A stretch of DNA of 64,000 bases from a virus (Duplodnaviria > Caudoviricetes): positions 25,182 through 89,181 of the IMG/VR virus record IMGVR_UViG_3300014826_000002. One strand, 5' to 3'. The notes beneath the pieces were generated by a model. The model was given only the letters and a program-made list of their open reading frames with translations, had not been told where the DNA came from and did no database searches. Positions 1 to 25,186 of the stretch are shown here, in pieces. The number at the start of each line of letters is the position of its first letter. The first letter of the stretch is position 1. The position numbers were made by a program, and so were the translations under genes.

Positions 1-657
1 GAATAACACAAGGCGTAAGATGTCACCAGCAGTCCCTTGTATTATGTGGCTGGAAACGCGTCTTTCAACAGCTGCTCTGACTCTCTCGGAAGCTCTTATA
101 GCATTATCTCTCTCCAACCAATTATCGTAATTATTGCTATTCTTATCTATGACATCTATCCAACCTCTAAAATTACGAGGTCTTCCAAAGGCGTTGAAAA
201 CAACACCGTTGTTCTGGTACATTTTGTCGATTTCTTTTAATTTCCAATTATACATTTCATAAAAGGTCTCGTTATACTTTTGTATCATTTCTTCAGCTTC
301 AGCTAAAGGAATATCCAGTTGTTGAGATAAAGTATGGGCCCCTCCAGAGTAGTTATTAAGGAAGTTAAATATCTTAGCTTTCTTTCTTTTTTGCTTATTG
401 TAATTTTCTTCTCCCCATATAGCATAGGCTGAAGCTGTGTGTGGGTCTATGCCATTGTAGAAGTTTTGAAGCATTTGGTGGTCTCTTGACAAAATAGCCA
501 TAAGTTTATATTCTTGAGCGTCGTAATCCAATGATACCACGTATCTTGCCCCTATGGTTTTACCAGAATAAATAGGTATTCCATTGACCTGATGTACTCC
601 TTCTTTTAGTCTTTTTATTTTCTTTTTACCTATATACTTAATACTTTTAATTTTCAT
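1..657 (-). CDS. Family A DNA polymerase, C-terminal subunit (runs off the window edge), with an N-terminal split-intein-C-like leader
   Basis: Not in the ORF track. Manual translation from ATG at 657 is open to position 1: MKIKSIKYIGKKKIKRLKEGVHQVNGIPIYSGKTIGARYVVSLDYDAQEYKLM (motif A)...RKKAKIFNFLNNYSGG (motif B)...SHIIQGTAGDILR. The ATG overlaps the upstream TGA (ATGA). Confidence 0.93.
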   Translation of the reverse strand, partial: MKIKSIKYIGKKKIKRLKEGVHQVNGIPIYSGKTIGARYVVSLDYDAQEYKLMAILSRDHQMLQNFYNGIDPHTASAYAIWGEENYNKQKRKKAKIFNFLNNYSGGAHTLSQQLDIPLAEAEEMIQKYNETFYEMYNWKLKEIDKMYQNNGVVFNAFGRPRNFRGWIDVIDKNSNNYDNWLERDNAIRASERVRAAVERRVSSHIIQGTAGDILRLVLF

Positions 658-2417
658 ATTACCTCTCTTTCAAATCTCCAGTTCCCGCTATTGTACATCC
701 TTAGTATCCCTTTACTCTTTAAAAAAGAGTTTACGTCTTCACCATTGTACTCAGGAAATATTCTTTTTAATTTATGCTTTTGATATTTTTCACGACTTTC
801 AGTCTTACCTGTATTCTGATTATAGTATGACATGATAAGTCCTGTATCTTTGATAAATTTAAAACCATTTTTATAATAGACACTATCCTTATAGTTGGCA
901 GTCCAATCCCTGTTACAATAGGTTATTATTTTTTTAATTTCTGGATATTGGGATTTTATACAAGAAATTGCAAATTTTAGCAACTTTGAAAAGCCACCTA
1001 CAACTGAAATTCCCAATTCAGACGAGTATCTTGCTATCTCTATTCCGTCCTTATGCTTTCGAAAAGATAAACAGGATACTATTTTACCTTCGTAGAATAA
1101 CCCTACTGCAAACGAGCAATGGACATCACCGCTTATATGTGTCCTATTAAAAAATTCTTTTCGTTCTTTCAAGTTTACTAATTTTGTGGTCGTCTTGCGA
1201 GCGTATAGTCTCTCAGACTTTCCAAGGAGCTGATTCACCCTTGACTTTATAATATCTTGATTTTGACCTTCCCAAAAATGGTACAAGCGCACCCCTTTAG
1301 CTAAACACTTTTCAGTTTTCTCTTGATGATACTTTTTGGGTACAACTGTTTCGTTATGCCAATATCGTCCATTATATTCAATAGCTATTTTCTTTGAAGG
1401 TATGTAGAAGTCAAGTTCTTGGGGAGCTATCAGAGTTCTGTCCCCTTGTATAGCGTCTGTCTCACTGAGTAAAGTACTGATGAAATTTTCTGCTCTTGAT
1501 TTAGGATAACAATGGGTGCATCTTATATTTAAAGGATCATGTAAAGTCCTTTGGAAAGTTCGACCGCACTTCTTATGCTTAAACGTATACTTTAGGTATT
1601 TTCCATTTCTTGTATACCCTTTAAATTCGTCTACTACTAAGTATTCTTCTAAATTTGTTAATAGTTCTTTAAAAGAGGACTCACCATTTTTATTTTTAAT
1701 AAAATTCCTTTCCTCCTCAGGAGAGCGTCTACTATAATCAAGTCTCTTAAAAATTCCGTAAATTCTTTTTCTTCCTATTCCAAAAAAGTCTTCTACTTCT
1801 TTTATACTGTGTGTTTCATAATAAGAAAATAAGTCACTCCAATCACTGTTATATAAGTAGCGGATTCCAAAGTTAGTCTTATATTTTATGTTTGCTTCTA
1901 ACTTTGGAAGAGATAATCCTATCTTTTTAAAATTTCTAATAGCTGTCTCTGGGGTTGTCCCATGAGCACGACATGCCTTGTAAAGAGACCGTTCTTTTAA
2001 GTATGTGTCATAAACTTCTTTCCAGCCTTTAACGTCTTTTATAGGGCACTTCTTTTCTCTTTGCATTTCATTTATTTCTTCTTGACTTCTTAATTTGATA
2101 TTATTTTCAATAAAATATCGTTTAATAATTAACGGCGACGTGTGAAATTTTATTGCAAGGTCACTCAGAGTCATGCCATTCCCGTAAGAACTTATAATGT
2201 TACTTATTTGCTCTTTTGTAAATTTTTTTCTGGCAAAAGGTCGTGATACTTTTCTTTTTTCATTTTTTATAGCATAGTACCTTTCAGTTTCATGAGGAAA
2301 TGAAGCCACTAAAAGAGTAAATAACTTGGTACCTACGTGCTCTTTTTTCAAAGCGTCTTTTAAAGACATGCTTTTAAAATTTTCTATTATCTGTTGGTAA
2401 AGTTCCAATTTATCCAT
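654..2417 (-). mobile_element. Free-standing Hef-like (PD-(D/E)XK/Vsr-type) homing endonuclease with N-terminal HTH-like repeats
   Basis: ELDFYIPSKKIAIEYNGRYWH...KYHQEKTEKCLAKGVRLYHFWE, followed by the ARK...FFNRTHISG...VGGFSKL C-terminal region typical of Hef-like phage endonucleases. Sits between the two polymerase halves. Confidence 0.8.
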
Positions 2418-4381
2418 CAGTTCTCCAATATCTCTATATTGTTTAATTTAATAATCTGTTCTAACGTACAAAATGAAACAATACCTGTTTCCTCTTTAAC
2501 TTTAAACACAGTATTCTTAGTACATTGAAGTTTTCTATCATCTTCTAGTTCAAGCTCATAAATATCATGCTCAAAGTTGCCGTTCTCATTGGGAATACCT
2601 GCAAATTCTTTTTCACCTTCAGGAGCTTTCAAGCACCCTCTAATAGTAGGATTGGGGTCTTGTCCTTCTACAATATACTCATCCTCTAAATGACTCAAAG
2701 CATAGTCGTCACTTAATGGAGTAAACTTCCATCCTAAAATACCTTCAGGATCTTCAGACAGGCACTTCTCTGCTCTATAATACCCACTCTTAGGTTTTGT
2801 TAAATTTTGTGCATTTAAGTCAATATAATAGTGATTCTTACTTTTATTCGATTTTGACCCATTTCCAGACGATAATCGTCCCGATTTAGTACCTTTTAAC
2901 CTATAATGCATTATACACTCGTCAACTTGAGTCAACTTATCAATGTAAGAATTTAAAGCCTTATTCAAAGAATTATTCTTTTGGATAAGCTCAAGAATGT
3001 GTACTTTCTGCATTTCGTCCAAATAAACTTGTTTTACAGTTAGCCAGAAAAGCTTTTTATCCATAGGTTCGTTATTTTTACCTTTGAAAGTTACTGTGTT
3101 CTTAGTTACTTTCATATTAAAATGGTCCTTTCCATAAAGCTCTAGTAGTACTGCTAAACTGTAGCCGTCACCTGTCTTATAGAGTGTCTGGTTCTGAAAA
3201 TTTATGTTTTTATAATTTATAATGCACTCTTTTAATTTAGTTATATTGCGTTTCATATCTCCTAAAGCTTTCTTACTCCAAGAAGGTTCACCTTTACCAG
3301 TAGTGACACCTGTAAATACTTTTTTAGACGCCATTGCATCTGCAAATTCTTTAGATCTAGCTAGGTTAAATATACCTATCCCAAAGAAATCATATATTTC
3401 CGAAATTACTTTTCTTTGTTCTTCTTCTAAATTTTTCTTATATTGAATAGCTTTCTTTCTATCAATAAGAATTTTACAATGCCCGTAGTAATCCACGAAC
3501 ATCTTAACCATCTGGTTATCTTTAATAAGGACATTATATTCTTCGCCGTCAAACGAAAGAGGCTTCTTAAATTGTTTCAATAAATTCTGCACCATGGGGT
3601 ACATTTCTTCATAAACCCCTATCAACCCAGTTACGTCATAGCATGCATAAGCATAGCCTTTTTCTGGATTTACTTCTGCGAAGTTTTCACATTTCTTTCC
3701 TAAAACTTCTGAAAATTCTGGAACGGTTCGTCCAAGAACTCGTTGCTCCAGTGTTTTCAAACCGGCCATACCAGAAGCTTCTGGATCATAGAGGTAAGGT
3801 AATATTAAATTATCAAAAGCTTTAATTTTTCTAACATCATAGCCTTCAAATTTAAGCATGTTTAAGTCGAACTCTGAATTATGCATGAGAACTCTTTTAG
3901 CTCCTGTTAATATCTCATATAGAACGTCCAGAGCTTCTTTAGGGTCTAGATTATGCTCGTAGTCAGTATAACTAACTGTTACTTTTTTAGTACGAGAAAC
4001 TCTTCCAGCCTTAGTTAAAACTTGATTTCCATTTTCGTCTAATCTATCCACCATTTCCGAGACTTCATGTCTGACTTTATGCCTAATCGGAACGTAGAAA
4101 CCAAACCATCTATCTAAGGCTATGGAAAACCCTACTATCTTATCTTGTCCATAGGTTAAACCCGTGGTTTCGGTATCGAACGCAATTCTTTTATCTTTAC
4201 ACTTGTTAATATATGTCTTAAGCTCATCAATACTTGTTATCAATTTAGCATTATCTGAATGAATTTTTAGTACTTTTTCACCTTGCTCATTTTCTTCCCA
4301 ATAATGAAACTTCATATCTAACGGAGCTTGAGGAATTATTGACTCGTACTTAAAAAGTAAACCTTCACCTAATTTAGCCAT
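2417..4381 (-). CDS. Family A DNA polymerase, N-terminal subunit (3'-5' exonuclease plus start of palm), ending in a degenerate intein-N-like segment
   Basis: Exo I AFDTETTGL, Exo II HNSEFDL, Exo III YACYDV; TKSGRLSS and NAQNL; IRGCLKAPEG, then IYELELEDDRKLQCTKNTVF resembling intein block B. Confidence 0.92.
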   Translation of the reverse strand: MAKLGEGLLFKYESIIPQAPLDMKFHYWEENEQGEKVLKIHSDNAKLITSIDELKTYINKCKDKRIAFDTETTGLTYGQDKIVGFSIALDRWFGFYVPIRHKVRHEVSEMVDRLDENGNQVLTKAGRVSRTKKVTVSYTDYEHNLDPKEALDVLYEILTGAKRVLMHNSEFDLNMLKFEGYDVRKIKAFDNLILPYLYDPEASGMAGLKTLEQRVLGRTVPEFSEVLGKKCENFAEVNPEKGYAYACYDVTGLIGVYEEMYPMVQNLLKQFKKPLSFDGEEYNVLIKDNQMVKMFVDYYGHCKILIDRKKAIQYKKNLEEEQRKVISEIYDFFGIGIFNLARSKEFADAMASKKVFTGVTTGKGEPSWSKKALGDMKRNITKLKECIINYKNINFQNQTLYKTGDGYSLAVLLELYGKDHFNMKVTKNTVTFKGKNNEPMDKKLFWLTVKQVYLDEMQKVHILELIQKNNSLNKALNSYIDKLTQVDECIMHYRLKGTKSGRLSSGNGSKSNKSKNHYYIDLNAQNLTKPKSGYYRAEKCLSEDPEGILGWKFTPLSDDYALSHLEDEYIVEGQDPNPTIRGCLKAPEGEKEFAGIPNENGNFEHDIYELELEDDRKLQCTKNTVFKVKEETGIVSFCTLEQIIKLNNIEILEN

Positions 4382-4397
4382 TTCTCTCCCTTTCTTT

Positions 4398-4859
4398 TTA
4401 GGCTGTATACAATCTTTCTATAAATGTTACTAAGTCGCCCGATTCTATGTATAGGTTATCAATATAATTTTTTCTTTCTTCTAAAGCTGTGGTGGTGAAT
4501 TCATTTATACGCTTTTGAGAAAGCTCTAATTGCATCCCTAGTAAACTTTGAGGCATTCGCGCTTTTAGAAAATACAAGGGTGACACGTAGTTTCCGTATT
4601 TATTACAAAGTATTAAATCTACGTAATCATAAGCTGTAAAATTTCTGTGACACTCACCAAAGCAGTGAATTATCCATATGTTCCGTTCGTCATCCCAGTA
4701 CATCTTTGCTGCTGGAGTATCATGATTATCGTGAAAAGGACAATAGATATTTCCTGTGCTACTATCCACTCCTTCAAAGCGCTTTGATAAATCAGCGAAA
4801 GTAAAATTATTGTTAATTACTTCTCTAATTACTTCTCTACTATAACTCTCTTTTGCCAT
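4398..4859 (-). CDS. Stand-alone primase-type CHC2 zinc-finger protein
   Basis: CPFHDNHDTPA...IHCFGEC is a CHC2 zinc finger; 153 aa, no TOPRIM domain. Confidence 0.8.
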   Translation of the reverse strand: MAKESYSREVIREVINNNFTFADLSKRFEGVDSSTGNIYCPFHDNHDTPAAKMYWDDERNIWIIHCFGECHRNFTAYDYVDLILCNKYGNYVSPLYFLKARMPQSLLGMQLELSQKRINEFTTTALEERKNYIDNLYIESGDLVTFIERLYTA

Positions 4860-4921: not shown

Positions 4922-6535
<1,614 letters not shown>

Positions 6536-22071: not shown

Positions 22072-22627
22072 TTAAGTCTCTGGCTTCATAGCCAATAGGA
22101 AGTGAGTAGTCTTCTTCGGGATGCTGAATTCTGTATGATTCTATTAAACCAGACGTTGCTGTAATGTCTCCATCTGCTACTTTATCCCCGATAGTAAAAC
22201 CATGAATAGCTCTATGACTCCAACCATACCATTTATTCTCTTCAACAGAATAACCTATGGAACAAGTATCATTCATAGGAAGGGCTTTCTGAATTAAAAT
22301 TAGTTTCTTGGTATTAACTAGGAAATCGTAATCTTTGTCGTTACCTATGTAACCTCCGTCAACATTGGATATGTAATAAACGAATTCAATGCACTCTTTT
22401 TCCATTTCTTCTTGTGTCCAGTGTCTGTGTGCATAAGGACTTTTTGGCAACATTGATGTTATCTTAGTTATTAGTCCATTAGAAACAATATCTTCCCCGA
22501 TGACTAAGCATCCACCTTTGTCTACATAGAGTACTGAATCAGGTAACTTTTGTGCTTCAAAACTTTCGTGACCGTCGTCATCTTTTACTTCTACTAAACA
22601 AGTTCTTTCTTTTAATTCTTTATTCAT
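22025..22627 (-). CDS. Hypothetical phage protein
   Basis: 200-aa ORF with SIGYSVEENKWYGWSHRAIHGF. Confidence 0.7.
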   Translation of the reverse strand: MNKELKERTCLVEVKDDDGHESFEAQKLPDSVLYVDKGGCLVIGEDIVSNGLITKITSMLPKSPYAHRHWTQEEMEKECIEFVYYISNVDGGYIGNDKDYDFLVNTKKLILIQKALPMNDTCSIGYSVEENKWYGWSHRAIHGFTIGDKVADGDITATSGLIESYRIQHPEEDYSLPIGYEARDLNGAKRMAIAFAEAVS

Positions 22628-22630
22628 TGA

Positions 22631-23137
22631 TTATTCTCCTATAATTTCCAATATTCTACTTAAAGCTTCGTTAGCGGGAAGTATCGTAAAAGGAACATGC
22701 AACCTATCTAAAGTAACTAATATTAAATCCCCTACACGAGCAGCTTGCTCTTCTGTTTGGTGCCTTCCGCTAGCTTGATACTTGTGCGTTCTCTCTAAGA
22801 AAAAATTAAGGTTATCATACTGATTGAAGTAGTCTAGTGCCATCCTATCGAATATCCTAGGTTCTTTCTCGTTGTAAGCTACACATTGAACGGATGGGCT
22901 ATCCGTTACAATGTAATCAACCTTTCCATTTAATTGATTAAGCTTCTTATTCTGCTGAGCGTAAGTAAATAATTGGTCATGAAAAGGGTAAGGGCTACCT
23001 TCATACAATTTCTCTTTTATATATTCATGAGCCAGCTCGCACGTGCGTCCTTTCATCTTTAAATGATACATTAATCCAAAAGCTAGAGTACTCTTACCTG
23101 AACCCGGAGCTCCAAATAAATTAATAACTTTAGTCAA
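22631..23137 (-). CDS. NadR/AAA_28-like P-loop kinase
   Basis: GAPGSGKST, IVTDSP. Confidence 0.8.
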   Translation of the reverse strand: MTKVINLFGAPGSGKSTLAFGLMYHLKMKGRTCELAHEYIKEKLYEGSPYPFHDQLFTYAQQNKKLNQLNGKVDYIVTDSPSVQCVAYNEKEPRIFDRMALDYFNQYDNLNFFLERTHKYQASGRHQTEEQAARVGDLILVTLDRLHVPFTILPANEALSRILEIIGE

Positions 23138-23502
23138 CCTTTAAATCTCCTTATTTATTTTGCATAAGCCCTACATAGTAGACATATAAGTATTAATGGA
23201 CTTATTAAGAGTAAAAACCATATACCTACAAACCAAAAAGACATCCACGCTGTTGTTCTACAGAGGTCTCTTAAATCTTCTTCCACTTTCCATTTCCTTT
23301 CTTTCTCTGTATATTCTCCCCGAATTACTTTACCTATCCTAGGGTACCTCTCACTGATATTTTTCATGCTACCATTTACCACCAGAAAATAACATCCCTT
23401 CTAGTTTATTTATGTACTGATTCTTACTTATTATTTCGTTTAACAAATTATTTACTTTAGTTTTTAATAAAGAATTTTCCTTCCTTAATTTCTCTATCTC
23501 TT

Positions 23503-23766
23503 TCATTTAATTCTCCGAATATTTCTAACTTTATGATTACTTGGCCAATCATACTCATTACGTTCCCACAACTTTAATGTTTGTAAAAGGATAGGATTGT
23601 AGTATGTATCAGGGTATTTGCAAGAGAACCTCTTTCCACATTTACGACAAATGAATAAATGAACAGGAGTCTCATGTATTATCCCGTCCGCGTCTGTCCA
23701 TGTACACGGAAGTATTTTTACTTCCTCAAAATCGTGTTGACAGAAAAATCTCTTCCAATTAAACAC
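23503..23766 (-). CDS. Hypothetical protein
   Basis: FCQH...CRKCG zinc-like motif. Confidence 0.6.
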   Translation of the reverse strand: MFNWKRFFCQHDFEEVKILPCTWTDADGIIHETPVHLFICRKCGKRFSCKYPDTYYNPILLQTLKLWERNEYDWPSNHKVRNIRRIK

Positions 23767-24394: not shown

Positions 24395-25186
24395 TTAAAT
24401 ATTATTAATTCTTTCTTCTGCTATTTTAAACATTTCGGGGTCGAGCTCACACCCTACAAACTTACATCCCATTCTTTGAGCAACAATTCCCGTGGTACCA
24501 CTTCCCATAAATGGGTCCATAACTATCTTACCAGAACCTACAAAATCCTTTATTATTCTTTCTATGAGTTCTTCGGGGAACCCTGCTTTAATATATTTGT
24601 TTCTTTTTCTTTTAATATGCCATATGTTATCTTCTTTTCCTCTTTCAAAATAGTGCTGAGCAAAAGTTCTTTTTAGAGGTTCACTATTAGAAAGGATAAT
24701 CAGAAATTCCCATGTTGAATTTAAAACTCCTTCGTTCATAGCTGGTTGAGAAACCATCTTATCCCATATAATTATATCTTTTATTTTTTCTGCGAATTTA
24801 CCCATCATATGAAGCAACGGAATCTTATTTCCAGTCACCATTTGAATATTATAAAATACATAATCAGAGACTTGTAGGGACTTCTCTAAAAATTTTGTTT
24901 GAAATTCCTCATATTTATCTATAGGCATATCATCTTTGTAGTTTGAATATTTGTTTGTAATGTGCCCTTTATTAGTTTCTCCACTTCCCGCCCATCGAGA
25001 AACAAACTTACCATTTTGAATACGCATGCACATATTATAGGGTGGAGAGGTTATTATAGCTCCTACTTTTCTTCCTTTTTCTATAAATTTATCTAGAACA
25101 ACCAAGCAGTCTTGATTGTATAATTTTACATTTGAATTTTGTATCATGCTTTTCTGATAGCCTTTCTCTTCTCTTTTTCTTTCCAC
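24395..25186 (-). CDS. Orphan amino-DNA methyltransferase (beta class, N4-C or N6-A)
   Basis: TSPPY motif IV precedes DPFMGSGTTG motif I. Confidence 0.92.
   Translation of the reverse strand: MERKREEKGYQKSMIQNSNVKLYNQDCLVVLDKFIEKGRKVGAIITSPPYNMCMRIQNGKFVSRWAGSGETNKGHITNKYSNYKDDMPIDKYEEFQTKFLEKSLQVSDYVFYNIQMVTGNKIPLLHMMGKFAEKIKDIIIWDKMVSQPAMNEGVLNSTWEFLIILSNSEPLKRTFAQHYFERGKEDNIWHIKRKRNKYIKAGFPEELIERIIKDFVGSGKIVMDPFMGSGTTGIVAQRMGCKFVGCELDPEMFKIAEERINNI

Follow-up and report, generated by a model that had tools for sequence, protein, structure and literature searches.

A phage family A DNA polymerase gene split around a homing endonuclease, with halves that carry the two pieces of an apparently splicing-dead intein-like domain

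The split polymerase locus

The DNA analysed here, referred to as the window, is a stretch of 64,000 nucleotides from a virus of the Caudoviricetes (IMG/VR record IMGVR_UViG_3300014826_000002, positions 25,182 to 89,181). Its first 4.4 kb are filled by three open reading frames (ORFs) on the minus strand, which encode a family A DNA polymerase in two halves and, between them, a Hef-like homing endonuclease (Table 1). At the break, the N-half ends with an extra tail and the C-half begins with an extra leader. Both segments probably descend from one intein (HINT) domain that has lost its splicing residues, and they may hold the polymerase together without a covalent bond. In the source record (G000; 89 kb, ~46% complete), the split gene is the sole PolA found.

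The polymerase body of the N-half stops at ...IRGCLKAPEG (residue 589). In Pfam, the N-half matches PF01612 (1.7e-12) and positions 4-91 of PF00476, and the C-half, whose complete ORF has 308 residues (L001:1234-2157, minus strand), matches positions 153-312 of PF00476 at 3.9e-28. The two halves abut on the phrog_17 profile, the N-half reaching position 1007 and the C-half starting at 1008. PF01612 and PF00476 span both halves, as expected of a family A polymerase with a 3'-5' exonuclease, and the predicted models of relatives match the Klenow fragment at Z scores of 24.7-27.0. The original prediction, made from the sequence alone, had described a polymerase fractured in the palm, with halves flanking a Hef-like endonuclease and coupled through TGATG and ATGA overlaps; the ORFs agree with this description in every position.

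The sequences GGAG and GAGAGG are located 5-7 nucleotides upstream of the two internal starts. Promoter-like and terminator-like sites between the ORFs are no more frequent than in shuffled sequence. A read-through fusion of the halves was considered and rejected. Read-through of the N-half TGA adds just nine codons before a TAA is met, so no fused product can arise by that route. An Rfam search of positions 1-4500 gave neither a group I intron nor any other RNA family, and the extra segments are conserved as protein; removal of the cassette at the RNA level is therefore without support.

Table 1. Features of the split polymerase locus in the window
Feature	Position	Strand	Description and basis
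Family A DNA polymerase, N-half	2417..4381	-	654 residues; 3'-5' exonuclease, thumb and first part of the palm
Family A DNA polymerase, C-half	1..657	-	Motifs A, B and C; cut by the window edge
Hef-like homing endonuclease gene, free-standing	654..2417	-	587 residues; PHROG and tblastn
N tail	2420..2614	-	N-half residues 590-654 (65 residues); N-terminal part of the putative splicing-dead HINT domain
C leader	547..657	-	C-half residues 1-37 (MKIKSIKYIGKKKIKRLKEGVHQVNGIPIYSGKTIGA); C-terminal part of the putative dead HINT domain plus a 6-residue linker
Polymerase motif A (SLDYDAQE)	511..534	-	Just downstream of the break; aligned to insert-free relatives and PF00476
TGATG, N-half stop overlapping endonuclease start	2415..2419	-	TGA at 2419-2417, ATG at 2417-2415; sequence
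ATGA, endonuclease stop overlapping C-half start	654..657	-	TGA at 656-654, ATG at 657-655; sequence

Three states of the polymerase gene

A search of 5.8 billion proteins returned a large family of polymerases, the best 120 of which (64-83% identical to the N-half) were aligned and sorted by script. Three allelic states were found. Most of these relatives (87 of the 120) are unsplit and insert-free, measure ~860 residues and read ...APEG/RYVVSLDYDAQE with nothing between, a slash marking the junction here and below. Another eight are unsplit proteins of 968-981 residues with an in-frame insert of 104-115 residues exactly at APEG/RYVV. The split state is represented by 17 usable N-halves with a tail of 62-76 residues and, from a second search, by 18 C-halves with a leader of 36-37 residues. 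The insert-free relatives, in which APEG runs directly into RYVV, agree with the earlier proposal that linking APEG to the body of the C-half restores the normal spacing.

Aligned to the contiguous insert, the tails tile its N part and the leaders its C part, and the break falls in the central linker, before a long strand. Because of this tiling, the alignment identifies the tail and leader as two pieces of one domain and not as junk made by the insertion. Like an intein, the element is an in-frame insertion at a conserved site, right before motif A, and is precisely missing from 87 homologous alleles. Like a fractured gene, it is broken in the linker of the contiguous insert, with a Hef-like endonuclease ORF at the break. 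At identities of 62-99%, no fewer than 17 N-halves and 18 C-halves share the same starts and stops.

A comparison with unsplit relatives, or with relatives carrying intact inteins, had been suggested together with the original prediction, and it revealed unsplit polymerases that hold the same dead domain in one piece. This one-piece form and the patchy, mobile-element-like distribution of the cassette are the new elements of the present analysis. Searches with the tail itself returned little: phmmer with the 65 residues over 1.84 billion representatives gave the family member P0072 alone, and a region-restricted word search gave just four close relatives beyond the window's own protein. No close polymerase relative was found in a phage GenBank collection, and scans of IMG/VR and JGI contigs yielded insert-free relatives or chance matches only.

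Probable intein ancestry of the insert

The fold of the insert was predicted for P0083, a relative with a contiguous insert, by an AlphaFold2 model built without templates from 44 family sequences. Residues 591-700 of this model have a predicted local distance difference test score (pLDDT) of 77-93, and the insert is all-beta. Comparison with 48,161 chains by VIA-align matched the VidaL intein 6vgw (Z 12.0, root-mean-square deviation 2.6 Å, 93 aligned residues) within residues 596-694 only and the NpuDnaB intein 4o1r (Z 11.3, 2.0 Å, 90 aligned residues) within residues 596-691 only. The rest of the model matches polymerases and exonucleases. A HINT fold is well supported by this modelling in the one-piece relatives, and for the split version of the window it would carry over by homology through the tiling alignment. 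A second model, of P0079, has a pLDDT of 87-96 over the insert, and its best 50 matches, which end at Z 11.5 above the range of small domains, are all polymerases or exonucleases and speak neither for nor against the intein match of P0083. The solved inteins that match P0083 are 142-145 residues long, of which 90-93 align, leaving ~40-50 core residues absent from the insert. Natural split inteins are broken in the linker that connects the N-part of the domain to its C-part, and the break here is at that site.

Twenty insert-bearing members, none of which has the exonuclease-domain intein described below, were scanned with intein hidden Markov models (HMMs). PF14890 (Intein_splicing) matches four of them, the best at an E value of 0.0031 and 17.8 bits against a cut-off of 35.8, and TIGR01445 (intein_Nterm) matches three (best E 0.11). 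A protein atlas placed intein clusters at 0.76 among the closest neighbours, to be taken as no more than a lead. The intein origin of the extra segments, as originally predicted, is supported by the fold matches confined to the insert together with these recurring sub-threshold HMM matches.

Other parts of the original prediction fared less well. A search of the extra segments against intein profiles, which it had recommended, gave sub-threshold matches in other members and none with the window's own tail and leader, for which Pfam and PDB sequence searches also returned nothing meaningful. Its by-eye alignments to Npu DnaE are not borne out, as no significant pairwise similarity to any single intein was found. 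Comparison of the insert profile with the family's exonuclease-domain mini-inteins by hhalign reached a probability of 0.1-0.5%, which is not significant. Smith-Waterman alignment to an intein in a ligase-like gene of the same genome gave p 0.22 against shuffles for the tail and p 0.02 for the leader, the latter in an alignment that is out of register. In view of these results, the CTKN string common to the tail and the ligase intein is anecdotal. Block A was said to be largely deleted, but the N-terminal strand of the domain is still there, and the missing ~40-50 residues come after it.

Loss of the splicing residues

A census of the insert family covered 25 N parts and 26 C parts from about 45 sequences. 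None of these sequences keeps the Cys or Ser at residue 1, the block B His, the terminal Asn or the +1 nucleophile. The first residue of the insert (n=25) is Glu in ten members, the window included, Lys in seven, Gln and Thr in two each, and Val, His, Asp and Asn once each; it is never Cys or Ser. The block B-like motif reads C-(T/S/C)-x-x-(T/S)-V-F-K-V, with Thr or Ser at the His position in 24 of 24 members, and in the window's tail (...LQCTKNTVFKV) this residue is Thr. The domain ends with (Y/F)-S in all 26 C parts, followed by Gly (15), Asn (10) or His (1), a 5-residue linker and Arg at the true extein junction; in the window, YS stands in the place of HN and Gly at the +1-equivalent position. 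YS is equated with HN from the NG anchor and from residue 691, where the structural match ends, and not from a residue-level superposition. Two residues of the insert family never vary: the Cys in the region of block B and the Ser in Y-S.

The claim that the splicing residues are gone (no Cys or Ser at the junction, TKNT for TxxH and YS for HN) thus extends from the window to about 45 members. A loss of splicing is the simplest reading of this pattern, because the same lineage holds canonical inteins in which the catalytic residues are kept. The sequence, which retains none of the four splicing residues listed above, argues against protein trans-splicing of the two products.

Canonical inteins were observed elsewhere. 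Just downstream of the C-half, roughly 1.6-2.6 kb before base 1 of the window, lies an ATP-dependent DNA ligase-like gene (G000:C1 ~22554-23600, minus strand; L061/L062). It carries a full-size canonical intein of 348 residues with Cys1, a block B TKNH, two LAGLIDADG motifs and the end ...VLVHN/S. Five polymerase N-halves that also bear the dead tail (P0007, P0029, P0072, P0114 and P0115) contain a second, canonical intein in the exonuclease domain at YA/CCDTSG. This intein (CYDKETEVLT...AGN/C) is a mini-intein of 146-155 residues or, with LAGLIDADG, has 339 residues.

The endonuclease and the probable mobility of the cassette

The product of the middle ORF matches phrog_3339 (5e-69) and phrog_559 (1e-63), and by tblastn it is ~30% identical (E ~1e-31) to annotated multi-copy Hef-like homing endonucleases of Campylobacter phages. 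Its N-terminal part contains modules of helix-turn-helix-like type, and a putative Vsr-like nuclease core (...ELDFYIPSKKIAIEYNGRYWHNE...) occupies the centre. The matches of this core are weak, namely the catalytic domain of I-Bth0305I (3r3p) at E 0.014 and Vsr TIGR00632 at E 0.04. By similarity, the middle ORF is identified as a homing endonuclease.

Two regions of this protein show additional matches. Residues ~126-167 (window 1900-2050, minus strand; …ERSLYKACRAHGTTPETAIRNFKKIG…) align repeatedly to transcription activator-like effector (TALE) repeats in PDB 9jo8 and 2ypf, with a whole-sequence E value of 1.6e-06 and single repeats that are each insignificant. This stretch is probably one helix-turn-helix-like DNA-binding module. 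The C-terminal ~190 residues (window 654-1250, minus strand) match phrog_29804, a family of unknown function, and fall under a 'putative acyl-CoA N-acyltransferase' feature in one Campylobacter phage record; the matches mark them as an extra domain.

The distribution of the cassette was traced on a FastTree phylogeny of the shared N-body (113 sequences, insert columns excluded, unrooted, near-copies included). The split state requires 11 changes on this tree, at least 10 of which are forced by well-supported branches, a count to be read as a rough lower bound and not as a history. The insert-bearing state overall requires 12 changes. Several split forms have an insert-free form as their closest neighbour, separated by branch lengths of ~0.04.

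Tails and bodies also disagree in their affinities. The body of P0072 is 78% identical to that of P0005 and groups with P0005 and P0007, but its tail is just 44% identical to that of P0005. It is 54-58% identical to the tails of the P0087 group, whose bodies are 64% identical, and groups with them. The body of P0073 belongs to the other major clade, and its tail is 55-61% identical to those of the window's group. Such disagreement between tail and body, together with the scatter on the tree, is what homing of a cassette into insert-free alleles would produce. The whole cassette appears to behave as a mobile unit, and we infer that it moves by homing.

Proposed association of the two halves

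The tails of the split forms have a mean net charge of -7.5 (window -8) and the leaders one of +7.8 (window +9), as opposed to ~-2.8 and +4 for the matching N and C parts of contiguous inserts. Tail and leader keep their length, strand pattern and key residues (Cys, Y-S and Gly) in every member, and no truncated versions occur.

A co-fold of N-half residues 583-654 with C-half residues 1-44 scored 0.49, against 0.01 for the best of three controls; at least 93% of the contacts agree between runs, and the partner pLDDT is at least 69. Of 80 solved complexes, 58 reach this mark, and so do 2 of 110 mismatched pairs; with scores of 0.60 or less, just 7 of the 80 solved complexes reach it, together with both of the mismatched pairs that pass. 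Co-folding, one of the checks proposed with the original prediction, thus came out on the positive side of the mark, at a level that lends weak support to binding between tail and leader. Together, the opposite charges and this weak co-fold provide indirect support for a predicted clasp between the halves.

Proposed mechanism and alternatives

The explanation that we favour, and consider reasonably probable, is a mobile cassette with a dead split HINT domain that rejoins the polymerase halves non-covalently. The cassette would comprise a degenerate mini-intein, divided into an N part and a C part, with a free-standing Hef-like endonuclease gene between them, and its place in the polymerase gene would be the hairpin that immediately precedes motif A. 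Co-transcription of the three ORFs is probable, as is their translation through the overlapping stop and start codons. The acidic tail of 65 residues and the basic leader of 37 residues would then pair by charge and fold into one HINT-like beta domain of ~95 residues. The ends of this domain would adjoin, so that APEG and RYVV meet and the palm is rebuilt without a peptide bond. Splicing would not follow, given the missing residue-1 nucleophile, block B His, terminal Asn and +1 nucleophile, and the endonuclease would spread the whole cassette at the DNA level into insert-free alleles of related phages. Binding, the absence of splicing, the activity of the two-piece enzyme and homing are the steps that we infer in this scheme. 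A polymerase held together without a covalent join is the most likely state of the enzyme.

A wider claim has about an even chance of being correct. It holds that the cassette is a homing element that is wholly without splicing, formed by a dead split HINT domain of ~95 residues and a Hef-like endonuclease, whose damage is neutralised by a non-covalent joint at the active-site palm, while the one-piece insert persists in unsplit polymerases. To our knowledge, a dead split HINT domain of this size is smaller than any active intein known.

Several observations weigh against the favoured explanation. The evidence for the fold comes from the model of one relative, whose insert is only roughly 40% identical to that of the window, and not from the split protein. 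No intein HMM match of the insert family attains its curated cut-off, and pairwise and profile comparisons of the insert with individual inteins are not significant. The insert might instead be an ordinary, non-intein accessory domain of a polymerase subclade that a homing endonuclease invaded by chance. The sub-threshold HMM matches would agree with this, as would the single family member returned by phmmer and the permanence of the insert in unsplit forms. Such an origin is nevertheless quite improbable in view of the matches at Z 11-12 to two solved inteins, limited to the insert, the recurrence of intein families among the weak matches in two libraries, and a break at the typical split-intein site. 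Moreover, close relatives lack the insert precisely, and its scatter over the tree does not resemble vertical inheritance of a domain. As regards assembly, tail and leader evolve faster than the polymerase body (~37% versus 65% identity), which fits weaker constraint, and the weak pass of the co-fold may reflect the model's memory of solved split-intein complexes. In addition, the tails of the split NrdA of phage Aeh1 are dispensable for heterodimer formation (PMC3045599), and the halves described here might likewise associate through the polymerase itself. These points also favour the view that tail and leader are intein-derived leftovers without a role in assembly, tolerated in halves that join via their own palm, thumb and fingers interface. 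Opposed to this are the conservation of length, strand pattern and the Cys, Y-S and Gly residues in about 45 sequences without any truncation, and a charge segregation much stronger in split than in contiguous forms, which points to selection on the split state. We regard mere leftovers as unlikely.

The remaining alternatives concern the fate of the polymerase. Non-canonical inteins of class 2 and class 3 exist, as do inteins with a terminal Gln or Asp, and the invariant Cys of the block B region and Ser of Y-S could be taken as signs that the element still trans-splices by non-canonical chemistry to yield a covalent polymerase. However, residue 1 is not a nucleophile, the domain ends without Asn, Gln or Asp, Gly, Asn or His occupies the +1-equivalent position, and Arg follows at the extein junction. 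With ~40-50 residues of the usual HINT core also missing, and canonical inteins of the same lineage keeping all their catalytic residues, this possibility is very improbable. That the polymerase is a pseudogene wrecked by the insertion of the endonuclease is also unlikely, indeed hardly credible. The gene is interrupted, and another polymerase could lie outside the ~46% complete record; yet neither half is broken as an ORF, all exonuclease and polymerase motifs are present, the split relatives counted above begin and end at the same positions, and the record is without a second PolA. The reading that accounts best for the locus is still the mobile cassette whose dead HINT pieces rejoin the halves non-covalently.

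Relation to known systems

Fractured genes, in which the halves of a split intein flank a free-standing homing endonuclease gene, were described by Dassa et al., 2009 (PMC2677866). The locus shares with them a phage replication enzyme as the target, the order of N-extein plus N-intein, endonuclease, and C-intein plus C-extein, and, on weak matches, a Vsr-like endonuclease core. In contrast to the present domain, where all these residues are missing, the inteins of Dassa et al. keep Cys/Ser1, TxxH, HN and the +1 nucleophile, and several of them trans-splice. They also measure ~125 residues or more, against ~95 residues plus short flanking linkers here. The polymerases in the text matches from PMC2677866 are DnaE and B-type polymerases only, and no family A polymerase is among them. 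According to the same paper, the N half of natural split inteins is negative and the C half positive, a polarity also found here and in the Aeh1 NrdA tails (PMC3045599). In T4-like phages, split gp43 family B polymerases (Petrov and Karam, cited in PMC2677866) likewise represent a phage replicative enzyme encoded by two genes, which a homing endonuclease gene separates in one case. They differ from the present locus in polymerase family and break point, and no tails with an intein fold were reported for them.

A second precedent is the ribonucleotide reductase protein NrdA of Aeromonas phage Aeh1, split into NrdA-a and NrdA-b by mobE (Crona et al., 2011; PMC3045599). In this case too, an essential enzyme is split by a free-standing endonuclease, and the element contributes oppositely charged tails, which are required for function; no splicing takes place. 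Crona et al. speculated, without evidence, that such tails are degenerate intein remnants. The Aeh1 tails are short, have no detected fold or intein ancestry and act in the dimerisation of heterodimers (PMC3045599); the polymerase family differs in its predicted HINT fold, in the one-piece form of unsplit relatives and in a cassette spread over many alleles. The methylase insertions of ShiLan-type phages are similar in that they are mobile, in frame, unspliced as RNA or protein and retained in the host protein, but they contain an out-of-frame HNH gene, have no HINT fold and leave the host gene unsplit (PMC11855218).

With natural split inteins, such as gp41-1 and those of cyanobacterial DnaE (for example Npu DnaE), the predicted domain shares the two-piece HINT architecture, an acidic N part and a basic C part of ~36 residues starting with M-(K/I)-I-K. 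Natural split inteins are active and leave no trace in the mature protein, whereas the domain here would stay as a permanent non-covalent joint. The open-access full-text literature searched describes neither a natural splicing-dead split intein acting as an assembly domain nor this polymerase family.

Inteins are generally taken to persist only as long as they can splice, since lethality is expected once an intein in an essential enzyme goes dead. The family suggests another way out, in which fold and mutual affinity are kept while the chemistry is lost, so that the enzyme works either in two subunits or, with the extra domain retained for good, in a single chain. If correct, this would link the fractured genes of split inteins with the charged assembly tails on endonuclease-split genes, and it would show selfish elements making new subunit boundaries in replication enzymes. 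It would also provide a worked example of the 'degenerate intein tails' on which Crona et al. speculated (PMC3045599). As insert-free, one-piece and split states all occur at ~60-80% identity, the evolutionary order and the biochemical consequences are directly testable, and a very small natural splicing-free pair of HINT pieces could serve as a protein-association tag.

Neighbouring genes and distant relatives

Two further genes on the minus strand lie upstream of the polymerase. An ORF of 153 residues (4398-4859) contains a zinc-finger-like motif (CPFH...HCFGECH) that, by eye, is of the primase type, and positions 4922-6535 hold a full-length GroEL-like chaperonin gene of 537 residues.

Among more distant split PolA C-halves, P0154 and P0155 open with canonical C-intein halves (…YYANGILTHN/C and …YYANGIETHN/S). 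Their site is within motif A, ~9 residues downstream of the break in the window. The leader of P0153 has SNIESI in common with P0154, lacks HN and is found at the insertion site of the window, and the leader of P0149 resembles that of the window without its YS. Judged from these sequences, degeneration may have occurred on more than one occasion.

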